Assembly (NCBI GenBank): GCA_965217865.1
Contig: CBDCJO010000002.1
Coordinates: 608,001 to 672,000, forward strand
Length of the DNA: 64,000 bases
Source of the DNA: Candidatus Latescibacterota bacterium
GTDB taxonomy: Bacteria > Latescibacterota > UBA2968 > SICM01
Direction of reading: 5' to 3'
Shown: positions 1 to 15,538 of the stretch, piece by piece
How positions within the stretch are numbered: position 1 is the first letter of the stretch
How the letters are laid out: each line of letters starts with the position of its first letter
Translations under genes and position numbers: made by a program
The notes under the pieces: generated by a model
Told to the model about the DNA's origin: nothing
What the model saw: only the letters and a program-made list of their open reading frames with translations
Databases searched by the model: none

Positions 1-1133
1 GACGTGATTGCGCCGCAGCATCGTCCGTTGATTGCGAATCTTGCCCGCCACGAACTGGCGGGCCAAGCGCAGGCAATACCAGGACTCGTCGGACAGACGG
101 AACTGCGCCTGCCGCAAGAAGACGTTCTTGGTGTTTAGCCCGGACGTAACACCGTAGAACCAGCCCCCCTGGGAGAAGTAGCAGACAGGGATCTCCGCCT
201 CACACAACGCCTGCACGGCCTGCGTGCTGATTTGGATACTGCCCATCAAGCTGACCTGGCAAATCGCGTTGATGCGCGCTTCCTGAACCACCTTGTCGCG
301 CTCTTTGATGCGGAGGACTCTACCGCTCTTGCCCACGCGCAGTCTCTGGAATTCAAATACAGAGGCTTCTGATCGGCGCGCGGCGCGACAAGGAGTCGGG
401 GCTCTCGGACCGCAGGGTTCGGGCTTCGCCGTCTCCCCTCGAACAAGTCGAGTTGTTCCACGCCCTCGGTTTCGGTGTGAGCTTGCAGACGCCAGGTTTC
501 ATCCGGCAGGCAGATGCCGACCAACGAACAACCGGGACACTTGGGCGAGTCGATGAGCGGCGGAGGTATTGCGGTCGCCGCCGCCGTCGCCCACGCCTTG
601 GCGATGGCTCGCTCGGCTTCGGCGATCGTCTCGTCGTCGAACGGGACACGCACCCGCTGCCGCGTCTTCCGGTAGAAAACAACGCCCTCGTCACAGCAAT
701 AGCCATTGGCGCGCAGCACGAGCGCCTGGACGGCCAGTTGGACGCGGTCGCTGGGCCAGGCTGCCACACCGTGCTCACCGTCCATCGGACGGCCGTGCTT
801 GTAGTCGACCGGCGTGGCCCGGCCCTCTGCGAATTCCGCCAGGTCGAGCTTGGCGATGACACCATGTTCTTCCGACGACAGCGTGATCGAGCGCGCCACG
901 ACGGGCGCTTCCGGTTCTTCACCCGGCCGGGGTGCCGACTGCGCTTCCCTGTCGACGTGCCTGTGCTGGGCGGCACCCTCGGCGGTGTGCTCGTTGTGTA
1001 CGAAGACACCTTCCACCTGCTCGAAGTAGAACAGCCGCGGGCAATAGACATACTCGTTGATCATGCGCGCGGAAAGATAGTCGGGCAATGGCCGACGGGA
1101 TGAGTGGAGTTCTTGCGCGGGGAGAGCGCTCAT
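1..1133 (-). CDS. cas4-cas1: Cas4-Cas1 fusion (type I-G adaptation), one-base frameshift near 345-350; runs off the window start
   Basis: From ATG 1133 (MSALPAQ): Cas4 motifs NEYVYCPRL, AKLD, PVDYKHG, QLAVQ and KCPGCSLVGICLP. After LYLNS the next frame reads RLRVGKSGRVLRIKERDKVVQEARINAICQVSLMGSIQISTQAVQALCEAEIPVCYFSQGGWFYG...AGKIRNQRTMLRRNH, a Cas1 N-terminus. Confidence 0.92.
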
Positions 1134-1150: not shown

Positions 1151-1692
<542 letters not shown>

Positions 1693-1718: not shown

Positions 1719-2963
1719 CTATACGGTTAGAGGCAGCTTCAGTTCCAGTTGCGGCCAACGTAGGATATCCGAGTCGCAAAGGTCGAGGGCCGAGAGCGCT
1801 GATTCCCAAAACGACTCGAAAGACTCTTTCTTGACGGACAGCAAGCCGTGAGCCAGCAGCGAGTTATTCCGTTTTTGTAAATGGTCCTTGAGGCAATCGT
1901 AAATATGAGATTGCTTACCAGGCGCCTCGTCCGCGCTGAACTCCAAAATCCGGAACAGATTCCGGACACCGAGTTTATATGGGCCATCGTTAGGTTGTCC
2001 AAGCCTCTCAATAACGTCTTCACGACGAACAGCCGGAAAACATTCTATCGAGACCTTGCCCATTTCAGCGCCGAACGCCTGCTTTACGAGTTGCTGACCG
2101 CGCAGCTCGACGGCGCGGTATAGCCTGCTGATGGCGTCGTCATAGCGCGACTGTTTTGCGCGTCTGTCGGCGTTGGCAAGAAGTTCAAGCAGGGTTTCAT
2201 GCCCCGCAGTCTTATCGTTTTGTGCCACCTGATCCTTGACGGCCGTCCAATGCTCATCCAGAGATACCAGCCTCTCGTAGAGCGGATGGTCGAGCGAGAG
2301 TTCCAGTTTTTGCCGCCAACGGCGAAACTCATTGTGGGCTCCCTTAAAGTCAAACCGGTCGGCCAGCCCGAGAGCCTTGGCGAGCCCGGCGAACGCCTCC
2401 AAGCGCGCTCGCTGCGACTCGTCACTCTTTTGTGCGGCATTCTCAAGAATCGCGGCGGCGGAATCGGCGTAGAATTCCGCCAACAACCCGTTCGCACGCT
2501 CAAGTTCGCGCACGGCGTACGTAATCCACGGGTTTTGGCATCTGACGACACGTTCGGATCCGGTAATGACCGTGCCAAGATTGTTGGAGTCGCGGCTGGA
2601 GCCGCCCACATAAACAAAATTTTTGAAATGCTCGACAGCGGCAAGCGTGAGTGCGGCCGACATGGGTTTGGTGCCGCCGGTAATGTCTACATATACCTCC
2701 TCGGGGTCCAGCTTGCGCTCGCTGAGCCACCTCTCTATATCGGTCCGAATCTCCTGATAGCAGATCCCGATATCCTGGTGATCTGAGATCTCCGAATACC
2801 CGTATTGAGGAACATAATCCAGCCCGGGCAGGATCTCGTTTTCCACCTGAGACCTTGAATCACCGGAGACAACAAATAGAACATAAGCGGGCCGGGCTTC
2901 CAAAGCCTTGCGCACCGGTTCTGGTGAACCTCCAACACTGGCGATCGTTCCGCGTAGGCTCAT
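1719..2963 (-). CDS. CARF-HEPN cOA-activated ribonuclease (Csm6-like, TIGR02710-type)
   Basis: N-terminal SVGGSPEP and VDITGGTKPMSAAL CARF motifs; RYDDAISRLYRAVE; C-terminal HEPN motif RNNSLLAHG. Confidence 0.88.
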   Translation of the reverse strand: MSLRGTIASVGGSPEPVRKALEARPAYVLFVVSGDSRSQVENEILPGLDYVPQYGYSEISDHQDIGICYQEIRTDIERWLSERKLDPEEVYVDITGGTKPMSAALTLAAVEHFKNFVYVGGSSRDSNNLGTVITGSERVVRCQNPWITYAVRELERANGLLAEFYADSAAAILENAAQKSDESQRARLEAFAGLAKALGLADRFDFKGAHNEFRRWRQKLELSLDHPLYERLVSLDEHWTAVKDQVAQNDKTAGHETLLELLANADRRAKQSRYDDAISRLYRAVELRGQQLVKQAFGAEMGKVSIECFPAVRREDVIERLGQPNDGPYKLGVRNLFRILEFSADEAPGKQSHIYDCLKDHLQKRNNSLLAHGLLSVKKESFESFWESALSALDLCDSDILRWPQLELKLPLTV

Positions 2964-3910
2964 TGGTCGGTTTCCTTTCGCCAGATCATGGGGACGGCGA
3001 GCCCGAAGGCGGCTTGAACCGGGTGGATGCTCCGTGCGGCAAGCGATTGACGAGCACTCTTGCTGAGCAAGCGTTCCGGGCCAATAGGGGCGCCGTAGAA
3101 AGGTTTTGGAGGGAGATTCGTGCGGAAGCAGGCACCCGCCGCCAGCATGACCTGCGGACGTTTGAACACGGCGCTGGAGTGGAACTCCGGGGCCAGTTTT
3201 CCGTATTTGACAAAAAGTCGCCAGAAGCCTTCCGTCGGGTCATCGGCCGCCGGTTGGAAAGTCGAGAGTGAGATGAAGCCGTCGGCACCGGGAATATCAT
3301 TCAGTTCAGGACAGGGCGTCGGATTGCCGTCCAGTTCAAAGCCGCCATGGCCCACCGAGGCATCGGCGCCGTATCCGGTCCGCCCCAGCATTTCAAGAGC
3401 TTCCATCAAAATCCGCATGCCGCCAGCGGAAGCCCGAGCAAAAATGGTCAAGTCGCCGTCGGACTTGCTGAGACTCGAAAACGGAACTTCAAAAAGTTCA
3501 CCGCCGTCGCCCGTGGTATTGGAAGCGCGGGAGATGGAGTTGCGTAGCCGCACGTGATCACGGATAGAGATGCCGGGATATTCCAGCTTGGGTTTCCCTC
3601 CACCTTGGACCCAACAAAAATCGGCAGTAGTCATCCAGCGATATTTCTTGATGTCCTTGCGCTCCTCTGGAGGCCAATCCCACCACAACGGGAGGCTCGC
3701 CGGCGCTGGCAGCGAATCGCCGGGAAAAGCGTCCGAGATGACAAATAGCGGCTCGCGGGCGAGCCATGGATCCAGAAAATCCCGCCGGAGCGCGGTCGGA
3801 CCCCGAGAACGCGCCCATGCGCACGCCATAGCGCCAAGAAGCGAATCCGCCTGCCAGGGCGTGGTCCAAACCCCGAGGGGCTTCAGCTTCAGGCGGATCA
3901 ATGTGTCCAT
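2960..3910 (-). CDS. csm4: Type III-A RAMP Csm4 (Cas5 group)
   Basis: WQADSLLGAM, FVISDAFP, RNSISR, G-rich loop GYGADASVGHGGF, FKRPQVMLAAGACF; lies after csm3. Confidence 0.85.
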   Translation of the reverse strand: MDTLIRLKLKPLGVWTTPWQADSLLGAMACAWARSRGPTALRRDFLDPWLAREPLFVISDAFPGDSLPAPASLPLWWDWPPEERKDIKKYRWMTTADFCWVQGGGKPKLEYPGISIRDHVRLRNSISRASNTTGDGGELFEVPFSSLSKSDGDLTIFARASAGGMRILMEALEMLGRTGYGADASVGHGGFELDGNPTPCPELNDIPGADGFISLSTFQPAADDPTEGFWRLFVKYGKLAPEFHSSAVFKRPQVMLAAGACFRTNLPPKPFYGAPIGPERLLSKSARQSLAARSIHPVQAAFGLAVPMIWRKETDQ

Positions 3911-4548
3911 GGCTCCCCGTCCAATTTGAAATCGTCGAAACTCACCGCTCCCGAACCCCGACTCGTCCCACCTCCCAATCCCGTCATTTGCACCAGATTC
4001 AAGCCGTTGGCAACGACTGCTTGGAGAGCTTCATCGCCGTTACGCCCCCCGTACTCGAATCCGGCGTCGAGATCGAAGACTTGCAGAACAATCTACATCT
4101 TGAACTCCGTGCCCTCGACTACACGCTCGTTCGACCGCGGATGTTCGGCCGCGCCCGTTTGGCGGTTGATCACGTTTTCCGTCTTATTCTCAATGCGACC
4201 GCCCTGAAGAAGCCGTCCGTCGCGGACGATGATGCGGGAAGGACCGAGGTTGCTCTTGGGATTCATGTGCGCTCCAAATACCCGACAGACGGGGCACTCC
4301 GCATTTGCACATCCACAAGGTTTGTCCTTCTGGTTCTGGCCGCCGAATCGACCCAGCTTTTTCTCCAACTCGGCCCGCATCTTTCCCTTGAGCGACGAGC
4401 CTGGAATGTAGGGCTTGTGAGTTTCCGGGTTCTTGATCACCGGGTTGTCGGAGCCGCCAATGGCCAACTCGTCTTGCGAACCTCCGATATGAAGGCCGCT
4501 TTCGCAGCGAACAGTAAAGGTAATGGTGTGAATGGCTGTTCTTTGCAT
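3898..4548 (-). pseudogene. csm3: Type III-A Csm3 (Cas7 group) interrupted by an in-frame TAG at 4093-4095
   Basis: SGLHIGG, IGGSDNPVIKNP (catalytic Asp), PYIPGSSLKGKMR, CPVCRVFG, ENKTENVINR. After the TAG the same frame continues IVLQVFD...GLGGGTSRGSGAVSF to TGA at 3898. Confidence 0.9.
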
Positions 4549-4549
4549 G

Positions 4550-5080
4550 TCAGCGTCTCTCCTTCATGTATGCGGCCCCAAATCCGACCAGCGCCTCGAA
4601 ATGTGGTAGAAAGCCTTCCAGAAATGTCTTTTCAGGCTCTTCCGCGGCGACTACCCGTTTCACGTTCCTATTGATGAAATCTTGAAATTCTGGCGGAATC
4701 TTGCGCGCCTCGACCGCGTTCTGAGCATGGTAACAAAGTGCCTCGAAGCGGGCAGATACGCGAAGCCAACTTTCGCCGTCAACTTTCAATTGGCGTTCAA
4801 TCTCACGACAGTGATTGAAGAAACGGCGTAACTGGCCGGTAGTCAGTTTGGGATTAGACTGAGTTGCAAGCTGCTTGGCCAAATGATCAACGTTCTTCTT
4901 GGAGACGAAGTCGGGTTGAAGATAGCTTTGGCCCCGGTCATCAATCTTGAAGTACGAGTCCGGTAATTTCGGAAGGGCTTTCCCTGGTGGCCTGCTACGA
5001 TCATCGCGGCCACGGTCTCGTCGCTCTGATTGTGTAGATTGTAATCCCGCCCGTTTCATAGCATCTCGCATGTCAGCCAC
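4550..5080 (-). CDS. csm2: Type III-A small subunit Csm2 (Cas11)
   Basis: LTTGQLRRFFN...FLEGFLPHFEALVGF; GTG start overlaps the cas10 stop. Confidence 0.88.
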   Translation of the reverse strand: MADMRDAMKRAGLQSTQSERRDRGRDDRSRPPGKALPKLPDSYFKIDDRGQSYLQPDFVSKKNVDHLAKQLATQSNPKLTTGQLRRFFNHCREIERQLKVDGESWLRVSARFEALCYHAQNAVEARKIPPEFQDFINRNVKRVVAAEEPEKTFLEGFLPHFEALVGFGAAYMKERR

Positions 5081-6542
5081 GGCGTTCTTCCTTTCCCGAT
5101 CGTGTTGCCAGCAAGGCATAGCGCAGACTTGCCGCCGGTTCGGTTACGCGCCGATCGTTGCGCTCCAGATATTCGAGCACACGGTCCGCCCAGCGACGAA
5201 AGTCGGTGTGACGGCGGGGGCACATGCGCTCGATTTGATAAGCCCAGCGAGCCGCCCGCAGAGGCTCACTGTTCTCTGCGAGCCGGAGTAAACGATGCAG
5301 CAGTGCGCGAGGAGCCACGCCGGCTTCAACCCAGTCCGCAAGCCGCTTGCCATCGCCTACCACAGACTCATGTTGCTTCCAACTCCAATCCGTCCCCAGG
5401 GCGGCGCAGCGGTTCTTGCCCGGACGTTGCTTGGCCGACTCCAGGAGTTCCTCTGCGCGCTCGACGGCGTGACGAATCGGCACCCGGTAAGGGGTCAAGG
5501 CGACTCCGGCGCTGAAAGTCATTGGCACATACTCGCGGCCTGGCCCGGACTCAAACTCTCTTGCCAAAAACCCGGCAAAATCGAGCACGATGTTCCAAGG
5601 GCCAACTAGCAGCAGATCGTCCCCACCGGCATACAGCGTATAGATCAAAGGCCATGACTCTGCCAACAATTCCTGAATTGTCTGCCCGAAGAACTCATGC
5701 AGACTGTAACTGAAAGACCTCAGCCGCTGATACGACGGATCTTCTCCGGCTATCTGTCCAACCCGCACACCCATATCGTCCACATCGGCTTTCAGCACAG
5801 CCAAACGACGGTCGCCGCGGGATTGGTCCGCAATCTCCTGGAATGTCAGCGGTTCGCCGGAGTCGGAATGGCGCGGTATCCAGCGACTCACTCGAAAGGA
5901 TCCAGGAGTCCGGCTTTCCGATGCCTCAAAGGCGATGCCCAACGCTCGCGCCGAGCTGCCGCCGGGGCGCATCCATTTCCACTGTGTCAGCTTTTCACCG
6001 AGTTTGCGGGCCTCCAGACAGCTCTTACAATGGAGAACCTCCTTACCTTTATCCTGTACGCTCTGCTGCCCCGGAGATTGTCGGCAGACTTCACACGGTT
6101 CGTCAAGTGGAGGTTGACTCCAACCGTCCGGGTTCCAGCCGCTATTGTTTTGCAGCATGGAAGCTCCTATACGGCGCTTCTGAACTTCCAGATGATAGCG
6201 GGCGGCGTGGAGTGTCTCTGCCCAGTCCAGCGAGAACTGAACTTCTCCGCCGGATTCATCCCAAAGCTTGCGTTGCAAGCCGGAACGAATCTCCTCGATC
6301 AGAACGGGGTCAGTATCAGGTGGAATCCGCACCAGAAAACCACCCCCACCCCGGACCAGAACCTCATCATTGGCAATACTCAAACGTTCCTTTATCGTCC
6401 AAAGTGCGGCATGTTCGAAGAGTTCGAGCAGGAACGACCGGGATCGCAGGCGCTTCGCCTGCGCTTTGCCCGCGCTCTTCACTCGCAACACGAAGTGCTG
6501 GATTCCCGAGAGGTCACCGATCAAGTAGATTGCATCATTCAT
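5073..6542 (-). CDS. cas10: Compact Cas10/Csm1 without HD domain; Palm2 GGDD intact
   Basis: Begins directly at GDLSGIQHFV (Palm1); KRLRSRSF; Zn finger CEVC...CKSC; LKADVDDMG; YAGGDDLLLVGPW; TFSAGV; 489 aa. Confidence 0.92.
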   Translation of the reverse strand: MNDAIYLIGDLSGIQHFVLRVKSAGKAQAKRLRSRSFLLELFEHAALWTIKERLSIANDEVLVRGGGGFLVRIPPDTDPVLIEEIRSGLQRKLWDESGGEVQFSLDWAETLHAARYHLEVQKRRIGASMLQNNSGWNPDGWSQPPLDEPCEVCRQSPGQQSVQDKGKEVLHCKSCLEARKLGEKLTQWKWMRPGGSSARALGIAFEASESRTPGSFRVSRWIPRHSDSGEPLTFQEIADQSRGDRRLAVLKADVDDMGVRVGQIAGEDPSYQRLRSFSYSLHEFFGQTIQELLAESWPLIYTLYAGGDDLLLVGPWNIVLDFAGFLAREFESGPGREYVPMTFSAGVALTPYRVPIRHAVERAEELLESAKQRPGKNRCAALGTDWSWKQHESVVGDGKRLADWVEAGVAPRALLHRLLRLAENSEPLRAARWAYQIERMCPRRHTDFRRWADRVLEYLERNDRRVTEPAASLRYALLATRSGKEERRG

Positions 6543-6545
6543 GTG

Positions 6546-6758
6546 TCACGACTTACCTCTGCTCTCCATAGCGCGTCCGACCTGCATGGAGTCCTCAATG
6601 CCAGCGCCGGAGATACCGTCTGTGGACTCGTCACGGAGGTGCTGCCGAATGTAGGTTTGTTCTTCCTCGAATGTCATGTCTCTGACCTGCTCACAAAGTG
6701 CATCTCGGATTGAGCGCATCATGTGTACGGCGTCGAACCGCTTCTCAGTATTCTCCAT
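6546..6758 (-). CDS. Small protein coupled to the PIN gene, putative antitoxin
   Basis: 70 aa, KRFDAVHMMRSIRD...; start overlaps the PIN gene 3' end; stop lies 3 nt before the cas10 ATG. Confidence 0.55.
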   Translation of the reverse strand: MENTEKRFDAVHMMRSIRDALCEQVRDMTFEEEQTYIRQHLRDESTDGISGAGIEDSMQVGRAMESRGKS

Positions 6759-7209
6759 AGTCGATTACCTCCCTGGGCGTTCTGATTTCGAGTATTGGAT
6801 AGCCTTGGCGCAGATTCACTGAGTTGTACGCATGAATCCGTCGCAGGTTCACAACGTGCTTGAAGTTCCAGCTCACCATGACATCGACTCGGCTGGTTGT
6901 AGCGATAGCAATGTGTTGGGCATCTATCCTGTTTGCCGTGCCGATAACTCCCGAATCAACATACCGGTGTGCGAGTGCGGCAGCTTCTTCAGTCAATTCA
7001 ACATGCTCTCGATGTGTTTCTGGCACTTTCTTGAGTACTGCTCGCACGGCCGCTGGCGCTGACAGAAGCTCCAATGAGGTCAGGCTGGATAGCACAATCG
7101 TTGCCTCGCCACGCTTGAATGCATCCACCAACAGTTGTGACGCTTCCTCGAATTCGGCGTCGAGACAGCCTCCAATGACCGATGTGTCGGTGTAGATTCT
7201 TCGTTTCAT
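6745..7209 (-). CDS. PIN-domain (VapC-like) ribonuclease
   Basis: RIYTDTSVIGGCLD, SSLTSLEL, DAQHIAIA, VSWNFKH. Confidence 0.88.
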   Translation of the reverse strand: MKRRIYTDTSVIGGCLDAEFEEASQLLVDAFKRGEATIVLSSLTSLELLSAPAAVRAVLKKVPETHREHVELTEEAAALAHRYVDSGVIGTANRIDAQHIAIATTSRVDVMVSWNFKHVVNLRRIHAYNSVNLRQGYPILEIRTPREVIDYGEY

Positions 7210-7464
7210 CGTGGGTTCCGTTGCATCTGGCCACGGGAATCCAGTGTTCGATTTCAATCAACCGAATCAGTGCCCGTATAGCGCTCGATGATCGAGTCGC
7301 CGACCTCAGCGAGGCGGGCTGGTTCCGTAAGCTGCCTTAGCAGCCTGGATCGCCTTTCGGCCGTTTCAGCATCGTATTTCCGCGCGTTCGGGCTGAACAT
7401 TCCCCCGCAGTGATTGGACGCGGACAAACGATATGGTGAGTTGTCAAGTATCAAGCATGCAGTC

Positions 7465-9135
7465 TCACTGGCAACGAAACAAACCCAAGCCAAAATGCGA
7501 TGCATATCCAAGCGCTAACGGACCTCGAATCGGACGATCAAACTCGATCCGGATGGCGAAGCCACAGCGGATGGGAGGCTCCGGCCTATCCCGCCGCGCA
7601 AGCACAAAATGCCGCAGGCGGGACCAGCGCGGATTGTGGTCCTTCGGACTAGCTCCACTTGCTTCTTCCACCAAACGGATGAACCGAGACGGACACGGAT
7701 TCGGCGCGAGTTGATGCACCGACTTGGGCTCCGGTAGATTACGAGAACGTAACTCTGCACGCACCTGTTCAGTAAGGGAATTTTTCCCTTGAACCTTGAG
7801 GTAGCGTGGGGGGACGAAGGGCGTCAGTGTCTCCCAGACGCGCGCATTCCCGGCACCTAAAAGACGCCCCATCTGATCTCCAAGACTACCCGGCAGGCGT
7901 TCCAAATCGGCTAAGGAACCAGTTGCGGAAACGGCCAACCGCAATGGGTCGACGCCGCCTTTGGTAAAAGTTTTGCGTGCATCTCGGATAGCCGCTTGCG
8001 CATCGGCGTCGAGACCCATGCGCGCCCAGATGACGATATGATCGAGGTGACCGTCATCGTCGAGGTCCAGAGGAATGACGTGGGCATGTTTGTGAGCGCC
8101 TTTCAGGGGTCGGCTGTCTTTATCGCGACCAGTGAGTACCGAGGGAACCGCCCCCTTCTTCGCAGCGATGCTCACCAGAGCCTTGTGGAGCAATTCGCCT
8201 TGCGGTAGCGTCCTTGTCACCGGCGGCAACGCATGGTCATTGCGGCTGGCATTGGTCAGGGACAACAGCATGGCCTGGACCGGCTCGGCAGATTGCATTC
8301 TCCTCGTGGCTTTGGGCGCACCAACCTCAATGGCGTTGGTTCGCCGCCAATAGAAGACGCGTCGGCTGCCCGGCGGCTGGCTCCACCCATGCTGGCGCAG
8401 CCAGTTTGTGTCCTTCTGCAAGCAATCGAGTAGATCAACGGGGAAAGGGTCCGCGGCTCTTTTCCGGTCCTGCGGGCTCTTCTTCGACGGTTCTTTTCCG
8501 TCTGTAAGGGGCAAGCGGACCAATGCCTCTTCCAGACGCTCCAATCGCCAATTCTCGAAATCGCGAGCACCCACGGCCGCAAGCATCGCGACCTGCTCCC
8601 AGCCAAGTCCGGGTGATGCGCCCATCTGTTCGGGAAAACAGTTGCTTTCTGGCGCGACTTCGCCTTGCCCAATCACACGGCCCATGATCCAGCTTTCCGA
8701 ACGCCCCAGATAACCGAGACGCTCCACTAGGGAACCAAGGATGGCAGACTCCTCTTGACTCAGGTTCACGTCGTTCCACGTGACCGTTAACTCCTCATCT
8801 TCGACTCGTCCCCAGGTGTCGAAGACCAAAGTGGTTTTTTCAACCTTCTTTCCGTCCAGTACGGCAGTGGGCATGTAATGGCGGCTATGCGCACCCACGG
8901 CAGGCGGCAGGTGATAGCTCGGAAGTTCTGCGGCCAACTTCTCCACCAGACGGCGGGCGACGGATGGCAGGCGGTCGCCATTCCAAATCCCGGAGGTGTA
9001 GCTAACCGAGACCAGCGCACGGAGCAGACGCCATGGCGAGGGCGGCCACTCGATCAAGCCTTCGTTGACGTGATGACCCCAAGGAGTGGCGTGATACCGC
9101 CCAGCGGGAAAGTGAAATGCAAGGGTGACGGCCAT
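7465..9135 (-). CDS. csb2: Type I-G Csb2 (Cas5/Cas6 fusion)
   Basis: FPAGRYHATPWGHHVNEG, EWPPSPWRLLRAL, YLGRSESW, GAHKHAH, C-terminal GPLALGYASHFGLGLF. Confidence 0.93.
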   Translation of the reverse strand: MAVTLAFHFPAGRYHATPWGHHVNEGLIEWPPSPWRLLRALVSVSYTSGIWNGDRLPSVARRLVEKLAAELPSYHLPPAVGAHSRHYMPTAVLDGKKVEKTTLVFDTWGRVEDEELTVTWNDVNLSQEESAILGSLVERLGYLGRSESWIMGRVIGQGEVAPESNCFPEQMGASPGLGWEQVAMLAAVGARDFENWRLERLEEALVRLPLTDGKEPSKKSPQDRKRAADPFPVDLLDCLQKDTNWLRQHGWSQPPGSRRVFYWRRTNAIEVGAPKATRRMQSAEPVQAMLLSLTNASRNDHALPPVTRTLPQGELLHKALVSIAAKKGAVPSVLTGRDKDSRPLKGAHKHAHVIPLDLDDDGHLDHIVIWARMGLDADAQAAIRDARKTFTKGGVDPLRLAVSATGSLADLERLPGSLGDQMGRLLGAGNARVWETLTPFVPPRYLKVQGKNSLTEQVRAELRSRNLPEPKSVHQLAPNPCPSRFIRLVEEASGASPKDHNPRWSRLRHFVLARRDRPEPPIRCGFAIRIEFDRPIRGPLALGYASHFGLGLFRCQ

Positions 9136-9141
9136 GAAACC

Positions 9142-10146
9142 TTACTCGTTATCTGTATCTTCCGCATCATCAGCAGTAGCGTCGTCTTCTGCCTTGCCTT
9201 TCTTGAGTTCGTCTTCGAACTTGATCTCGCTCACCTTCATACGATCTTGGCAGGTGGCGACTGCTGACGTCAGATCTGCTTCCAAATCCACCAAAGTCGG
9301 CAAAGCCCATTGGGAAGGCATGAAGGCTTTGACATCCTCGTCCTTGAGTTGAAAATCGCAAGCGGTTCGCAGCCGAATCCCTTCATCGGTTAGAGCCCGT
9401 ATTTTATACAGCGCCAATAGGATCAGGAGGCGTTCCGCACTGTCGCCCAGTCCGTAACCACGGATTTGGGCCAAATCGAGATTGACATAGAGCGTGATCG
9501 ATTCCGCCGTGTATTCGTCTCGTGCGAACGGAACGTTTCCGAATCCTTTCTTCGTGTCGCCCTGGGGGTTGACGTGATCGTTCTTCACACCGCCGGAAGG
9601 AGCGACCTGTACATTGTCCGCTTCTATAAAAGCTGACAGAGCACGAGCGACTCGAAGGCGCCCACCCGCCAGTTGTTTCTTGGCCAGGAACACACCATGC
9701 AGTAGAGAATTGATATCGTACTTTAGAATCACGTCAGCTAGCTTCTGACGATCGATAGGGCCGGTCTCCATCACCCCCAACTCTTCTCTGAGCGAATTAA
9801 TAAAAGTATTATCACTGTTTTCCAGCAGGTACGGGCTATTCAGCCGGTGGGACTCCAGTATCGTGTCCGTCAGAAATCCGCCGTTACGAGTTACACACAC
9901 GTGCGAAAGACCTTCCAATTCCTCCTTGACGTCCTGTTTCGCCGAATCCCAGATGGTCATCTCCAAGTGGTTGGCCATGCTCTGCACCGACTCCACCAGC
10001 AAGCTTGCGCCGTCCTGAACTTGGAACGTCGCAGCGCCCAGGGACGGGAATCCAGTGGGTTGGAAGCGATGGCCTAAAATCGGCTCCAATGGGATCTTAA
10101 ACAGCAGGCGGTTGGTGTCCTTGAGCGACTTCAGATTGATGGACAT
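9142..10146 (-). CDS. csb1: Type I-G Csb1 (Cas7)
   Basis: From MSINLK: RFQPTGFP, LLVESVQSMANHLE, ESHRLNSPY, DINSLLHGVF, SGGVKND, GFGNVPF, RLRTACD. Confidence 0.93.
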   Translation of the reverse strand: MSINLKSLKDTNRLLFKIPLEPILGHRFQPTGFPSLGAATFQVQDGASLLVESVQSMANHLEMTIWDSAKQDVKEELEGLSHVCVTRNGGFLTDTILESHRLNSPYLLENSDNTFINSLREELGVMETGPIDRQKLADVILKYDINSLLHGVFLAKKQLAGGRLRVARALSAFIEADNVQVAPSGGVKNDHVNPQGDTKKGFGNVPFARDEYTAESITLYVNLDLAQIRGYGLGDSAERLLILLALYKIRALTDEGIRLRTACDFQLKDEDVKAFMPSQWALPTLVDLEADLTSAVATCQDRMKVSEIKFEDELKKGKAEDDATADDAEDTDNE

Positions 10147-10150
10147 GGTC

Positions 10151-12601
10151 TCACTCCTTGTTCGGATCGAGGCGGTCGAGAAATCGTCCAGCGGTTCGTT
10201 GCGTAATGGGAAAGGCCAGCCCTGCCACCCAGAGGCGGGCAGTTTCGGGAGACGTGGTACCGCCGCGCACGGTGCAACGGACACCAGCGGCATGCAGACG
10301 ACGCAAAGCAAGGGCGATGGCTGACGCGGCATTGCCCGCAGCAAGACGGCGGACAATCACCGGGTCGGCGCCGATATCGAGCTTGTTTCCGGAGCGGGTT
10401 TTGAGAGGCCAGGGAAGCATGCAGAGGCGAATCGCCATCCAGGCGTCGTCAGGCCAGTTCGACGTCTGGGGCAGTTCCATGGGGAGGCATTGCTCCGCCC
10501 AGGCCTTGCGGTCCAGAGCCATAAGGGCGCGCGCCATAGCCAATGTTCGATCCAGGTCCACGCCTCCTGATAGCAACGCGACGAGATCGGCGGTGCAGGC
10601 CGCGGCGCGAGGCCCAGCTTTGAGCGGCAGATGTCGATCGCCGCGTTGTGAAGCCTCAACTAAGCGCCGTTCGATCAAGGCGACGGCATCGTCAACCCCG
10701 CGGCGACCATGCATGACGACTTCAGGTTGCACATCCAGCCGTGTACCGGCTCCCGTGCCGGTCGTAGCGAAGCGCCACGGCTGCTTACGATCCAAGGACA
10801 GCCAATGCCGTCGGATCGGATCGATTGGCGTTCCCTTTTCACGGCGGAACCCGCGTGCCTGTAACGCGAAGGCGACCGCTAATCGAGCCTCGGGGGTTCC
10901 ATCATAGGTGGCGGCCACCCACTCAGGACGCAAGCGAGGCACAGGTTGAGCACCGTAGCCACTGCCATGGGCCATTATCTCTTCAACTTCCCCCAACTGT
11001 AGGATGACACGCTGCCAGGATTCGTGCTGGTAGGGATGTTGGGTCGCAGTGAAGAGAGCCTCGACGAGACGCCTCTCGACCGCAACAAGGCGAGCCGGCG
11101 CGTTCTGGTCGCGCGCCTCTCGGCGTATGTGACGTAGCCATGTATCAAGATCGTCAATGCAGGCCAAGTGTTCGGACTGCTGATCCGCAACATCGAATCG
11201 ACCCAACGGTACGGCGAGATTGGATTTACCGTTACGTTCGATGTAGCCGTATCGTTGAAACGCACTGATGCCTCGCGCTGTGCCCAGCCGCACAACGGCC
11301 CGCGCAAGGTCCAGAGGTTCGCGTACGGCCTTGGCGCCAACCTGTGCGCGTCCCTCTGCAAGCAAATGGCGTAGCTCCGTAAAGGTCGATGGGTGCGACC
11401 AAAGCGGCATCCACTGCTCGCCCCGGGCGCTCTCATCGTGGGCTGATGCACTGGCGTAGCCCGCGCTGCACGCATTGACGACAAACGGTGAGGCCGCACG
11501 CGATGAATCCAACGACCCGAAGCGGCGCGTTGCATGCGAAATGAATACAGTGGCGCCCTCAAGCATGAGCACAAAGTCCAACGGATTCACCATGCTGTTC
11601 CCCTCCGGGCCATTGCCGTTGTTCGCTCCTCCGGCAGTGCCAGGCAGGTATTGGCCGACAGGTCGCCCCGTCGGATAGTCAGAAATGAGCACACCCCAAA
11701 GCGAACCTTGAACCCAAGAAGTCGCAGTATGTCGGGGTTTGCCTTGGTCACTAGCAAGGTCGAAGACCTCAACGAGCCACTGCATAAAGTTGTTTGTGAA
11801 GTCAAGATTGCCGTCGTTGCCTCCGGTGCCAAGCAATGCCGGACTATTGAACTGATTGTTCGATTCTCTAAGCCGTCTTTTGTAGTTTTCCGATCCCTTC
11901 ATCCTGGAGAATAGCTCTTTTAGGCGTTGGTTTTCTTCCTTAAGCTGGTCCTTTTCTGCTCCTTTTGTCTTCAAATCCTTGATTGTTTTTTCGGCTATAT
12001 CTCTGGTATGCAAGAATTCTTTATAATCTTCGGCAGCCTTGATCTGTTCTTTTGCCTTCTTGAGTCGTTGTTCTGCTTTCTCCAAGTCACGTTTGTTCTC
12101 GGAATCTCTGATTTGATCTCTGTCTTTTTGGGCTTTACTTAGGTCAGAATGCAGCCGCTCGTAGTCTTCCAAATATCTGCGCCGATCTCTCTCCACGTCG
12201 TGCTCACCGGTCTTGGTCTCCGCCTTTATATCTCTGACTTTTTTATCAGCCCTTGATAGATCATCAAGCGCAGAACGGCTGGCTTTGATTGCATTGCGGA
12301 AGTTTTTGAATCGAACGGCCTTGGATTTCTCGATTTGAGATAGAGCTGAGCCCTTAGCGATGAAGAACCCGGATCCCTTGTTCCACGGCGACACAAGGGG
12401 CGTCGGTTGATACCGGTATAAGAAAAATCTCTCAAGCTCCTCGCGGGTTAAGGTGGTCGCTAGTTGAAAGTGATCCCCGTCCCACCAACCACGAGCGTTG
12501 GCGTCAACCTGTTCGGAAACCAAGCGCAGGATGCCAAGCGCCTTGAGGTAGTGTGCGAGTGGAGCCGGTGCACAGCCGTGGAGTCGATGGATGTGAATCA
12601 T
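10151..12601 (-). CDS. csx17: Type I-G Csx17 (Cas8g) with a charged coiled-coil insertion
   Basis: GCAPAPLAHYLKALGILRLV, PLVSPWNKGSGF, PALLGTGGNDGNLDF, NPLDFVLMLEG, ARGEQWMPLW, FQRYGYIERNG. Confidence 0.92.
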   Translation of the reverse strand: MIHIHRLHGCAPAPLAHYLKALGILRLVSEQVDANARGWWDGDHFQLATTLTREELERFFLYRYQPTPLVSPWNKGSGFFIAKGSALSQIEKSKAVRFKNFRNAIKASRSALDDLSRADKKVRDIKAETKTGEHDVERDRRRYLEDYERLHSDLSKAQKDRDQIRDSENKRDLEKAEQRLKKAKEQIKAAEDYKEFLHTRDIAEKTIKDLKTKGAEKDQLKEENQRLKELFSRMKGSENYKRRLRESNNQFNSPALLGTGGNDGNLDFTNNFMQWLVEVFDLASDQGKPRHTATSWVQGSLWGVLISDYPTGRPVGQYLPGTAGGANNGNGPEGNSMVNPLDFVLMLEGATVFISHATRRFGSLDSSRAASPFVVNACSAGYASASAHDESARGEQWMPLWSHPSTFTELRHLLAEGRAQVGAKAVREPLDLARAVVRLGTARGISAFQRYGYIERNGKSNLAVPLGRFDVADQQSEHLACIDDLDTWLRHIRREARDQNAPARLVAVERRLVEALFTATQHPYQHESWQRVILQLGEVEEIMAHGSGYGAQPVPRLRPEWVAATYDGTPEARLAVAFALQARGFRREKGTPIDPIRRHWLSLDRKQPWRFATTGTGAGTRLDVQPEVVMHGRRGVDDAVALIERRLVEASQRGDRHLPLKAGPRAAACTADLVALLSGGVDLDRTLAMARALMALDRKAWAEQCLPMELPQTSNWPDDAWMAIRLCMLPWPLKTRSGNKLDIGADPVIVRRLAAGNAASAIALALRRLHAAGVRCTVRGGTTSPETARLWVAGLAFPITQRTAGRFLDRLDPNKE

Positions 12602-12739
12602 AGTCAACTCTTTTGCTCGAAACGACGGCACCAAATTGCGGCGTGGAGTAGTGAATCGTGTCGGTCGTAGTTTCGTAGGGCGGTTAAGTAGCGCGGGGAT
12701 TCTTCTCCAGTCGATATAGCGAGATCTACGAGCGGCAGG

Positions 12740-15538
12740 TCAAGCCAGCACATTGGTCTCTTTCTCGAGTAAAGGATCAGCAACCGCTTGAGCCGAGGCC
12801 CGAAGGTCGGCGGCGCGCAGTATTGCTTCCAGCCAGGCAAGGGTAAATGGTCCAAAGCGTTCGACCAGATTCAGCACGCGTTCGGTCCAACTCTTGCCCG
12901 TGCGCGGGCTCAGGCCAGCCGCAGACGGTGAGAGGTCAAGCGCGGTAGCTGGCAGTTGGTGAAGCACTCCGTCAGAGGTTGCCAGCGGTAGCGTCGGCAA
13001 CATCTCACCTTCGCGAACGCCGCGGATGCGTAGCCGGGTATCGTCCGCCTTCTGGTCCGCAGGGCCGGAGTGCCATGTCATGCGAACCTTACCGTGATGG
13101 GCGCAGACGAGGTAGGCGACCAGATCGAACTCCTCACCGCTTAGATCGAGGATTTCCTGTTCGATGGTCGTGAGTTCAGCGGGCGCTGGGTCTACGCAAA
13201 CGGCATCTTCCCCCGGATTGAAAAAAGCGCTGTTTGTTTCACTTATGGCGCCCAACCACTCGCGCCAAGGACCGAGAAGAGCCTGATGTTCCGGATCGTG
13301 ACGTTGGAGCACGCCAAACAGGCCCAGTGTGCTGGCCAATTCGTGGCGGAAACCGCGCCGCTGGTCAGTAGAGTCGATGCGGTAATAGTTGCTCGCACTG
13401 CACGGCCACGCGATATCCGGCGCCTTGGCAATGTCGTCGCGTACGGGACGGTTTTCAGCCTTGATCGAGCCCTGAAAAGCGGGATGTGCCTTGCCGAGAT
13501 CATGCCAGCGTCCTGCCAAGTGCAACAGTTTGGCGAGGGCCGGGGGGACTTGGTCCGCGATGCGTTCGACTTCCCGTCCCACCTGCAGGCCGTGGCTGGC
13601 GATGGTTTGCCAGCCGTCGGTGAGACTCAGGGATTCGTCGTCTTCACTCGCGTCCGCATACTCGTCAGGTGGAAGTTCACGCACGCGCCGCTCGCCCGGG
13701 CACCAGCCGTCGCCATCGCGTTTCCAGCAAGGATGTCTGGCGTACTGAACTGCCTCGTCCACTGGTACGGGGTCAACTTGGCCCTTCGCGTGTGGGTCCC
13801 AGCCGCGACCTTCGTCGTACCCCCCCACGCGACTCTCCACCAGCACTGTCTGGCCGGGGTAGAGATCACGGCGCTTGACCTCACGCCATTCGCGGTTCAG
13901 CCAATCCCAGACCCAGGCATGCTTGTCAGGTTTCAGGTTCTCGGACTTCGGTCTGCATAGCCAGTCACGGGCTTTGAGAAAGGGCACGCTACAAAGCTCG
14001 CTACGAGTAGGTTTCATATCCGAGGATGGCTCACCACCATCGACGTCGGCCCAGAAGACCTGTACGTCGCGTTCATCGCCCGACCGGATAAAGCGGCTGA
14101 TATCGATGTCTGCCCCCGATAGATCTGGTGAGGTGTCGAACAGTTCGTTCAACTCGTGGCGCAGCAGCAGATGCGTGGGTTGATAGGGATAGAGGCGCGG
14201 CAGCAACTCAACGTTCTCTTCCTCGAAGCGCTCAAGATGGCTCGGCGCAACGTCGTGCAACAAGTTGCAGGCATCGCGCGCAACGGCAAGCTCGTCCATC
14301 GTATATGGCGACGCCTTCTTATCGGTGCCGTGCTCGAAATCGGCGACAATGACCTCACCTGCACCGCCCCATCGAGCGCAACGACCGAATCGTTGCACCA
14401 GGCTGGTCCATGGCGCAAGTTCGGTGACCAACAGTGATGCCGAGATGTCCACACCAGCTTCGACCACCTGAGTGGAAACGATGATGCGATTCGTCCCGGC
14501 GGTACAAGCTGCGCGATTGAGGAAATCGCCGCACCAAGCTAAGCGTTTGGTGGGGCGAAACCGGCTGTGTACCAAGCGAACATCTGTGTCAGCCAGCGCC
14601 TTTTCTGACTTGAGTGCTTTCCAAACGTCAACGGCCCGCTCGACCGTATTGAGCACGACCAGCGTTGGTTCTTCTTTCCCACGGCCGAGATGTCTGTGAC
14701 GCTGAGAAACGTATCGAGCGAGCGCCTTTGGATTCTTGAATGCGGCGACTTCGACGGGCTTCTGTACACCGTCCCATAGACGACCGGTCCTGTCCTTGGG
14801 TTCGATGCTGTGGGTTCTTTGCGCCAGTTCGGGGACCAAGTCGGCGGTGTCCGGGCTCGTCTCCAGCCAGTCACGCTGTAACGTGGCGCTCATCCACCAA
14901 GTGAAACAGGGGCGCAGCGACTTGCTGGCTTCCCGGTCTTCGGTCCGAAAAACCTGAATCTGTCCCGAGGTGGCAAGGCCCACATCCATCAACTGCACTT
15001 CATCCATCACCCAAAGGGCGTCCTGGTTCAGCAGACCGAATTCCATGGGCCAACGCGCCCGTGGGCTGGCGTAGCCCCGGTTCATGGCGCGCGACAGCAA
15101 CATGTCCTGCGTGCCGATCAATACGGCATCGCACTCGGGATAAAGATGCCACTGACCGGCGTCCACACCGCCCATGAGCAAATGGACGCCGATCTTTCCG
15201 TCATGCGCGCTCTTCTTATCCCACAGCACTCCGAGACGTTCGAGTACTGCCCGGGCTTCTTTCTCTGTCTGCTCGACAAGCACCCGCATAGGTAGGCACC
15301 AAATCAGGCGGCGAGGCCAATCGTCGTTTCGTTGCCGCACCCGATGCCATGTCCAGGCCGCGAACACGCCCAGCGTCTTTCCAAATCCGGTCGGGATGCG
15401 TATTAGCCGGTTACCGCAATCTTTGGAAGTTGCCAGTTTCGTTTGCCAAGTGAGCGGTTCCGTCTTGCCGCACAACTTGGTAAAGAACTTGGCGAAATCT
15501 GTCGCGTTCATCTCACTTACGACCATCGCTTCGCTCAT
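12740..15538 (-). CDS. cas3: Type I-G Cas3 helicase with C-terminal HD nuclease
   Basis: IPTGFGKT, MDEVQLM, MSAT, HSRFR, STQVVEAGVD, QRFGRCAR; C-terminal HDLGKAH, RHELAS, HHG, RAAD. Confidence 0.95.
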   Translation of the reverse strand: MSEAMVVSEMNATDFAKFFTKLCGKTEPLTWQTKLATSKDCGNRLIRIPTGFGKTLGVFAAWTWHRVRQRNDDWPRRLIWCLPMRVLVEQTEKEARAVLERLGVLWDKKSAHDGKIGVHLLMGGVDAGQWHLYPECDAVLIGTQDMLLSRAMNRGYASPRARWPMEFGLLNQDALWVMDEVQLMDVGLATSGQIQVFRTEDREASKSLRPCFTWWMSATLQRDWLETSPDTADLVPELAQRTHSIEPKDRTGRLWDGVQKPVEVAAFKNPKALARYVSQRHRHLGRGKEEPTLVVLNTVERAVDVWKALKSEKALADTDVRLVHSRFRPTKRLAWCGDFLNRAACTAGTNRIIVSTQVVEAGVDISASLLVTELAPWTSLVQRFGRCARWGGAGEVIVADFEHGTDKKASPYTMDELAVARDACNLLHDVAPSHLERFEEENVELLPRLYPYQPTHLLLRHELNELFDTSPDLSGADIDISRFIRSGDERDVQVFWADVDGGEPSSDMKPTRSELCSVPFLKARDWLCRPKSENLKPDKHAWVWDWLNREWREVKRRDLYPGQTVLVESRVGGYDEGRGWDPHAKGQVDPVPVDEAVQYARHPCWKRDGDGWCPGERRVRELPPDEYADASEDDESLSLTDGWQTIASHGLQVGREVERIADQVPPALAKLLHLAGRWHDLGKAHPAFQGSIKAENRPVRDDIAKAPDIAWPCSASNYYRIDSTDQRRGFRHELASTLGLFGVLQRHDPEHQALLGPWREWLGAISETNSAFFNPGEDAVCVDPAPAELTTIEQEILDLSGEEFDLVAYLVCAHHGKVRMTWHSGPADQKADDTRLRIRGVREGEMLPTLPLATSDGVLHQLPATALDLSPSAAGLSPRTGKSWTERVLNLVERFGPFTLAWLEAILRAADLRASAQAVADPLLEKETNVLA

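Follow-up and report, generated by a model that had tools for sequence, protein, structure and literature searches.

The stretch of DNA analyzed here (the window) is 64,000 nucleotides (nt) of a Candidatus Latescibacterota genome, contig CBDCJO010000002.1, and it carries a small type III-A CRISPR-Cas module, made up of cas10, csm2, csm3, csm4 and a gene for a CARF-HEPN protein, inside a type I-G operon. On the minus strand the gene order is cas3g, cas8g1, cas7g, csb2, a PIN-domain gene with a 70-amino-acid (aa) open reading frame (ORF), cas10, csm2, csm3, csm4, the CARF-HEPN gene, cas2, and cas4-cas1 (Table 1). Of the parts that make up a canonical III-A operon, Csm1 (Cas10), Csm2, Csm3, and Csm4 are present, and Csm5 and the HD domain of Cas10 are absent.

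An earlier note on this DNA had described a 489-aa Cas10 that starts directly at Palm1, lacks HD, and retains the Zn finger and GGDD, and this description holds. The protein has DLSGIQ from residue 10 (Palm1), CxxC pairs at residues 150 and 172, DVDD at 253, and YAGGDD at 304, and it matches the Cas10/Csm1 model TIGR02578 with an E value of 3.8e-75 (254 bits against a cut-off of 170). Pfam finds no HD domain in it, the Pfam matches being Csm1_B and Palm2 alone, and solved Csm1 chains begin aligning to it at their residue ~234-249. In an AlphaFold2 model of mean confidence (pLDDT) 88.8, all top structural matches are Csm1, with template modeling scores of 0.74-0.78 to Csm1 cryo-electron microscopy chains among the top 10 matches. 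The spacing of the Palm motifs, compared as spacing and not through an alignment, is that of D256/S258/Q261 and Y580/D584 in EiCsm1 (PMC11734703; this and the other reports cited by number are used for those portions of their text that were at hand). The reading frame upstream of cas10 is closed, and the 70-aa ORF and PIN gene occupy that stretch. A separate upstream HD gene was considered, and none was seen in the three minus frames of the window or in the loci read, longer fused forms not having been searched. With its motifs intact, this Cas10 falls outside III-G and III-H as well as III-I, subtypes that the 2025 classification defines by a lost or inactive Cas10 polymerase/cyclase (PMC12669027), and the conserved DLSGIQ, DVDD, and GGDD together with the linked CARF gene are what is expected of a signaling type III system. 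Loss of the HD domain is by itself ordinary, because HD is recognizable in only 65% of III-A Cas10s (PMC11229360) and HD-less Cas10s from csm5-bearing systems are known.

The earlier note had described the lack of Csm5 at the locus, and no csm5 was found in the rest of the genome either. The genome is 96% complete and holds one Cas10 and one type III Cas7, csm3 being the only match in a RAMP-model scan, and the Csm5 model TIGR01899, which passes its cut-off in 4 of 14 control genomes, has no match in it; a csm5 elsewhere in the genome was thus sought with both models and not found. The usual csm5 slot is occupied by the CARF-HEPN gene, whose start overlaps the csm4 stop at 2960-2963, and Csm3 retains the GGSDNP motif, both as had been noted earlier. 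We collected 24 genome loci of the module in total, 22 of which reach beyond csm4 and are evaluable for csm5, and a CARF effector gene stands directly after csm4 in 22/22, so there is no csm5 in that place. Among the 24 carrier genomes, only 1 scores over the cut-off of the csm5 model, and the match lies ~1 Mb away in another III-A locus that is full-length. As a control we used 168 genomes of the host phylum, leaving out one genome with a frameshifted Cas10 at a contig end: csm5 adjoins Cas10 in 9/9 genomes with an intact full-length Cas10, and the 7 short-Cas10 genomes have no csm5 at that locus.

Csm5 loss is wider than the HD-less clade. Three full-length, HD-bearing III-A loci, L072 (G217), L089 (G603), and L092 (G756), have no csm5 between csm4 and the following gene, and none was found elsewhere in their genomes. 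Their positions in the Csm3 and Csm4 trees are close to the clade, yet they form no supported group with it. A further locus, L023:9204-12257 from a Dehalococcoidia metagenome-assembled genome (MAG), is a clade member adjoining a type I-E system; it encodes a 527-aa protein consisting of three fused Csm2 units, its cas10 is frameshifted, and it has a second, degenerate csm3 copy (41% identical) that has lost the catalytic and Gly-rich loops and could be a re-invented non-catalytic cap resembling Csm5.

The short Cas10 belongs to a broad group. The best 120 of 803 Cas10 homologs are 393-541 aa long (median 495, with 90 of them <500 aa) at 51-84% identity; all 120 have the Zn finger, 119 have GGDD, and none has an HD motif. 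When 1.84 billion representatives were searched with a profile, the first full-length Cas10 ranked behind 66 representatives at 50% identity, none longer than 579 aa and 59 of which are near full length, and the clade comprises at least 59 clusters at 50% identity. The clade loci come from MAGs of Latescibacterota, Chloroflexota, Acidobacteriota, Verrucomicrobiota, Rhodothermota, Spirochaetota, and Binatota, with remoter members in metagenomes; no relative was found in viral contigs, and the plasmid collection gave no close member, its best matches being 21-35% identical. In a Cas10 tree (a quick tree with a midpoint root, from which the near-copies L003, L009, and L071, the short contigs L013 and L014, and the broken L019, L023, and L024 are absent, and in which the csm5 status of L029 is that of the overlapping L030), the HD-less, csm5-less rows make up one side of a branch, 25 of 48 rows, with a Shimodaira-Hasegawa-like approximate likelihood ratio test (SH-aLRT) value of 100. 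They also form one side of a branch in the Csm4 (support 99/97) and Csm3 (99/99) trees. The phylogeny proposed in the earlier note therefore yields the supported clade it had envisaged, with Cas10s of ~490-550 aa, and the outcome that would have spoken against it, closest homologs that possess HD and csm5, is not what we observe, with HD in 0/120 and csm5 missing in 22/22 loci. A private deletion or an assembly artifact as the cause of the two absences was rejected, as homologs and loci share both. Pairwise ratios of nonsynonymous to synonymous substitution rates (dN/dS) are 0.17-0.24 for cas10, 0.07-0.17 for csm3, 0.10-0.25 for csm4, 0.18-0.50 for csm2, and 0.21-0.27 for the effector, and judged by these ratios the clade is under purifying selection. 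Stand-alone members (L034:5521-17433, L038, L036, L042) have a CARF-only gene and an unannotated ~270-aa gene before cas10. In L034 there are, in addition, an array, cas1, cas2, a split reverse-transcriptase-like gene, and a Cas6 belonging to the locus.

The effectors after csm4 in the 22 loci are 15 TtCsm6-like proteins, 6 Cami1-like CARF-RelE proteins, and 1 Csx1. In the window, the best solved relative of the protein encoded at 1719-2963 is TtCsm6 from Thermus thermophilus (E 1e-6, residues 66-376), a self-limiting RNase that is activated by cyclic tetra-adenylate (cA4) and degrades it (PMC10897365). The window protein resembles TtCsm6 in its CARF, 6H, and HEPN domains and its R-X6-H motif, but it is distant in sequence, and its activator and ring-nuclease activity are predicted from the family. 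Cami1 and Csx1 are listed among cA4 effectors (PMC11229360), and from these effector families we infer that the signal of the module is cA4.

Table 1. Module genes and surrounding features of the window.
Feature	Position	Strand	Remarks
cas10 (short Csm1, 489 aa)	5073..6542	-	Palm1, Zn finger, Palm2 with GGDD, D4; no HD
csm2 (Cas11)	4550..5119	-	PF03750; TIGR01870 (33.9 bits, cut-off 30.6); overlaps the cas10 3′ end; real start may fall a few codons downstream of the annotated one
csm3 (sole Cas7)	3901..4548	-	TIGR02582, over the III-A equivalog cut-off; GGSDNP catalytic Asp motif intact; one in-frame TAG at 4095-4093
csm4 (Cas5), 316 aa	2960..3910	-	TIGR01903 (E 4.8e-21), over the III-A equivalog cut-off; PADLOC Csm4 (E 9e-53)
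CARF-6H-HEPN RNase, 414 aa	1719..2963	-	TIGR02710 / TtCsm6 family; RNNSLLAH motif
Host I-G operon csb2 (fusion of Cas5 and Cas6)	7465..9135	-	TIGR02165
Type I-G cas7g, cas8g1, cas3g	9142..15538	-	TIGR02570, TIGR04113, TIGR02621
PIN-domain gene and 70-aa ORF, between csb2 and cas10	6546..7257	-	Weak PF13470 match
cas2	1151..1441	-	
cas4-cas1 fusion, I-G type	1..1133	-	Frameshift near 340-355; extends left beyond the window
I-G array, 12 repeats	G000:C2:606348-607174, just left of the window		36-nt repeat, 35-37-nt spacers

The PIN gene and the 70-aa ORF are likely a toxin-antitoxin pair. They were rejected as a component of the system, as the same position in other loci holds different small genes or none; the gap upstream of cas10 carries differing small toxin-antitoxin-like pairs in L002:7276-7928, L005:6836-7748, and L019:7260-7880, a label that comes from a domain scan for the window PIN gene and from sequence appearance for the other three pairs. 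A promoter and terminator scan and a fold of the repeat gave nothing decisive. The genome of the window (G000) also holds several orphan arrays, cas1 fragments, and a second, decayed I-G operon; these features lie at C2 140203-141025, 373316, 1972713, 2467575, 3275637-3276254, and 509643-512682.

Next, we consider where the module would obtain its CRISPR RNA (crRNA). By context, the 24 loci divide into 13 within I-G operons, 2 where the C-terminal half of Csb2 alone precedes cas10, 1 next to type I-E, 2 on short contigs, and 6 orphans, whose flanks, as far as read, show neither an array nor type I genes. Csb2 is encoded in 23/24 carrier genomes and, within the host phylum, in 7/7 short-Cas10 genomes vs. 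18/161 others, the carrier genomes being related and these counts hence not independent. An isolated C-terminal (Cas6-like) half of Csb2 stands right before cas10 in L011, L021, L029, and L069; it is the sole Csb2 found in G011 and G021 and adjoins a full Csb2 in L069, and the His in its C-terminal Gly-rich loop, assumed to be equivalent to the catalytic H503, is kept in 4/4. In T. sulfidiphilus, the C-terminal half of Csb2 alone cleaves the repeat, leaves an 8-nt handle, and remains on the 3′ hairpin (bioRxiv 10.1101/2022.08.08.503147). The module has no cas6 of its own, and two models and tblastn found no stand-alone Cas6 in G000. This absence and the co-occurrence point to the window Csb2 as the likely crRNA-processing enzyme for the module, which would likely borrow I-G crRNAs. 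The I-G repeats here end in ATTGAAGC, which is similar to ATTGAGAC and ATTGAAAC, the ends seen where clade members have type III-style repeats. In L001:1582-3939 and L007:5536-8001, the I-G Csb2 is ~790-820 aa long and has a weak phosphoribosyltransferase-like insert between its Cas5 and Cas6 halves (Pfam E ~1e-3, below cut-off).

Several observations weigh against a module that depends on I-G guides and is maintained as a working system. The relatedness of the carriers, mentioned above, is one of these. The Csb2 link is also not absolute, in that L034 and L042 have a canonical Cas6, L023 adjoins type I-E, and L038 adjoins a Cmr gene, and 6/24 loci show neither an array nor type I genes within the flanks covered. 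Core genes are disrupted in 4 of the 22 evaluable loci (L019, L021, L023, L024), in G333, and in the window. Finally, the spacers leave no RNA-targeting footprint: 370 of 700 are antisense in I-G arrays beside the module (p 0.14) vs. 45 of 89 in I-G-only arrays (Mann-Whitney p 0.93), as scored by a strand classifier that is 70% accurate, with three unorientable arrays left out, no array from L009 and L024, and 4 of 12 control regions usable. This balance fits DNA-based acquisition by Cas4-Cas1, in which case about half of the spacers could serve the module, and it gives no positive proof of sharing. In the L034 array, 31/42 spacers score antisense with the same classifier (p 0.003, post hoc, one locus). 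A comparison of the spacers with G000 gave no match outside their own array.

The copy in the window is damaged. Its csm3 stop codon replaces a Gln found in the five closest homologs (CAG in L071), and the shortened Csm3 would miss the C-terminal strands and the Gly-rich loop. In runs X3 and X4, which come from two samples of a single study, short-read contigs cover 3919-4613 with 0 differences, and contigs of X1, X3, and X5 match the cas4-cas1 frameshift without gaps, in a comparison of 4 of the 9 listed runs in which X1 may be the source sample. Among the sequencing runs listed as containing this DNA, none is an RNA run. With this stop codon in csm3, the window copy is probably inactive, which gives substance to the hint in the earlier note that Csm3 would have to be repaired before an assay, and adaptation at this locus is probably also lost because the frameshift is matched by contigs of three runs. 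For pairs that include the window copy, dN/dS equals that among intact relatives, and the csm3 lesion is therefore recent. Relatives that are intact include L071 and L020. It could be argued that the TAG is an assembly error or is read through and that the window copy is active, since one C-to-T change is enough to produce it and the gene is otherwise conserved, with selection of the purifying kind. However, the agreement of the X3 and X4 contigs already largely refutes the assembly-error version, and recoding or pyrrolysine use is unsupported, with no PylS over the cut-off, no tRNA with a CUA anticodon, and TAG terminating 366 of 1765 long ORFs; we thus regard an active window copy as very improbable. 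An X1 contig joins 1759 to 6419 (depth 6.7, with a 29-letter side, and so weak), a junction that would delete almost the whole module, and a comparable in-frame deletion in G333 (L068:10777-11787) fuses the cas10 start to the effector end.

Taken together, we think it likely that this is a four-gene III-A module with a CARF effector in a I-G operon, which borrows Csb2-cut crRNAs and is predicted to answer target RNA by making cA4 for a Csm6-like RNase, the copy here being probably inactive. The gene content, motifs, clade, and selection are computed here, and from these we infer crRNA loading, cyclic oligoadenylate (cOA) synthesis, and immunity. As in another I-G system, the C-terminal Cas6 half of Csb2 would cleave the I-G pre-crRNA, leaving an 8-nt handle at the 5′ side, and would stay on the 3′ hairpin. 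The handle would be AUUGAAGC, similar to the AUUGAGAC/AUUGAAAC in which type III-style repeats of the clade end; Csm4 and Cas10 would bind it, and Csm3 and Csm2 would polymerize along the 36-nt spacer. Without Csm5, the crRNA 3′ end would probably stay untrimmed and the repeat hairpin would limit the filament, a step modeled on Staphylococcus epidermidis, where the csm5 knockout complex still assembles with an untrimmed 71-nt crRNA intermediate (PMC6468305, citing earlier work) and where csm5 deletion leaves anti-phage immunity unimpaired when the system is overexpressed (PMC9762709). Binding of target RNA would then set off cOA synthesis at the conserved Palm1/Palm2 motifs. Since Csm3 keeps its catalytic Asp, cleavage of the target RNA is also predicted, so that the earlier suggestion of a complex acting only through cOA was overstated. 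The cA4 would activate a swappable effector (a Csm6-like HEPN RNase, a Cami1-like CARF-RelE protein, or Csx1) and lead to cell arrest, and destruction of DNA would be left to the I-G Cas3. With core genes of ~3.6 kb, the module would add transcript-triggered dormancy that does not depend on a protospacer-adjacent motif (PAM) to a DNA-targeting system. The compact sensor of the earlier note would have four subunits, but it is not self-contained, as cas6 is absent and most loci depend on a neighboring system, usually I-G.

The retention of a Csb2 half, or of a second Csb2, beside cas10 despite a full I-G Csb2 (L069, L010) raises the question of whether the enzyme does more than cut. In a chimeric effector, the hairpin-bound Cas6 domain of Csb2 would stay in the Csm complex as a 3′ cap replacing Csm5, possibly with Cas7g in the backbone. 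Csb2 of T. sulfidiphilus does hold the 3′ hairpin, with a dissociation constant of ~43 nM, but in the I-G Cascade its C-terminal half alone fails to support assembly (both bioRxiv 10.1101/2022.08.08.503147). The four isolated halves are not one clade in a quick tree, which suggests repeated capture. On the other hand, L034, a clade member with an ordinary Cas6, also lacks csm5, as do the HD-bearing relatives L072, L089, and L092, two of which have Cas6, and therefore Csm5 loss does not require Csb2. A prediction of the complex of Csm3 with the Csb2 half (L011 proteins, no RNA) scored 0.00 against a mark of 0.32, which is no answer and was used neither way. We consider such a chimera rather unlikely. 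A wider formulation, which we put forward tentatively and hold to be less likely than not, is a dedicated type III plug-in lineage drawing on a single crRNA pool together with type I-G; the 3′ repeat hairpin, with Csb2 bound to it, would cap the four-subunit cyclase complex instead of Csm5. If this were true, one array would drive both PAM-dependent DNA destruction and transcript-triggered cA4 signaling, and the stand-alone Csb2 halves would be the sign that a type I enzyme is on its way to becoming a subunit of type III.

The six orphan loci, the one I-E-linked and the one III-B-linked locus, and the loci with their own Cas6 would all be expected of a generalist add-on that takes crRNA from any array in the cell whose 8-nt handle fits; co-transfer on defense islands would then be the main reason why it lies in I-G operons. 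Most type III systems take Cas6 in trans (PMC12669027), and G000 has further orphan arrays from which such an add-on might draw. We hold this to be possible but doubtful, as Csb2 is encoded elsewhere in the genome in 6/6 orphan carriers, the search of G000 described above turned up no stand-alone Cas6, and the 20 kb read in G011 hold no more than the module with its Csb2 half, an I-G-type array, and the genes cas4-cas1 and cas2, with no other Csb2 in the genome. The lesions in the window, in 4 of 22 other genome loci, and in G333 could also mean that a degenerate III-A system is on its way out and that the absences of HD and Csm5 are losses of function. This we find highly improbable, given dN/dS far under 1 in all five genes, pairs with the window copy included, catalytic motifs that are near invariant across a clade of such breadth, and the antisense excess in L034, which is as expected of an RNA-targeting system. 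We therefore keep to a selected III-A module that likely uses I-G guides.

In such a module, nature and selection offer a test of what III-A can do without. Csm5 counts as a core subunit, the filament cap and recruiter of trimming nucleases, yet a broad clade lacks it, and how crRNA and filament length are set becomes testable. The loci point to routine, operon-encoded cooperation of I-G with type III, which we did not find described. They also suggest a survey gap, as the type III survey of Hoikkala 2024 dropped Cas10s <500 aa (PMC11229360), a filter under which 90 of the 120 closest homologs would be dropped. An intact member would be a DNase-free cOA generator of four protein types and ~1,200 coding residues and, if active, could serve to detect RNA or knock it down. 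Complexes whose HD is dead or naturally missing are already used for these purposes, and the practical gain would therefore be one of size only.

We found no paper on a III-A system that is HD-less, csm5-less, and nested in I-G operons, in a literature search mostly outside subscription journals. The term 'Csm5' has 0 occurrences in the main text and searchable supplements of the 2025 classification (PMC12669027), and the clade could be there unnamed in figures or Zenodo files. Compared with canonical III-A systems (S. thermophilus, S. epidermidis, L. lactis, E. italicus, T. onnurineus, and Serratia; PMC13737744 and PMC3150331 also concern canonical systems), the module shares the Csm1-Csm4 genes, their order, the Csm1 fold, the Palm motif spacing, and a CARF-HEPN effector, but it lacks HD (being ~240 residues shorter), Csm5, and mostly a Cas6 of its own, and it lies inside I-G operons with predicted use of I-G crRNA. 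The HD-less III-A systems of Arcobacter cloacae pACLO, Fulvitalea axinellae pFA8, and L033 likewise have a Cas10 of 486-552 aa that starts near Palm1 with GGDD intact, but csm5 and cas6 are present in them and the Cas10 tree places them outside the clade, and HD was therefore probably lost independently.

Subtype III-F (VIII-2 of Vestergaard 2014) has four effector genes, for a large subunit, a small subunit, one Cas5, and one Cas7 (PMC3973734), and the module shares with it the single Cas7 and the number of effector genes. It is otherwise a mirror image, with GGDD intact, HD absent, and a CARF effector present, whereas in III-F HD is generally present and both effectors and cyclase motifs are missing (PMC11229360); the window Cas7 matches Csm3 with E 1e-41 vs. 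3e-5 for Cas7_IIIf. The III-A2 branch (Makarova 2025) is a reduced III-A with no identifiable Cas11, linked to NucC and predicted to make cOA (PMC12669027); the module does not belong there, as it keeps Csm2, lacks Csm5, and uses CARF effectors. In Marinomonas, a III-B system uses guides processed with I-F (PMC5576922), which is the same kind of reliance of a type III effector on another CRISPR type as is predicted here, but the partner here is the I-G Csb2, the coupling is encoded in the operon, and the Cas6 half of Csb2 has been captured as a stand-alone gene. Precedent is thus known separately for HD loss, for a borrowed Cas6, and for type III with a single Cas7 (III-F). In their combination, as the earlier note had surmised, the loci apparently represent an undescribed, conserved variant of III-A that keeps intact cyclase motifs and a CARF effector, is small, cyclase-only at Cas10, without Csm5, and mostly I-G-dependent, with a function predicted from its genes.

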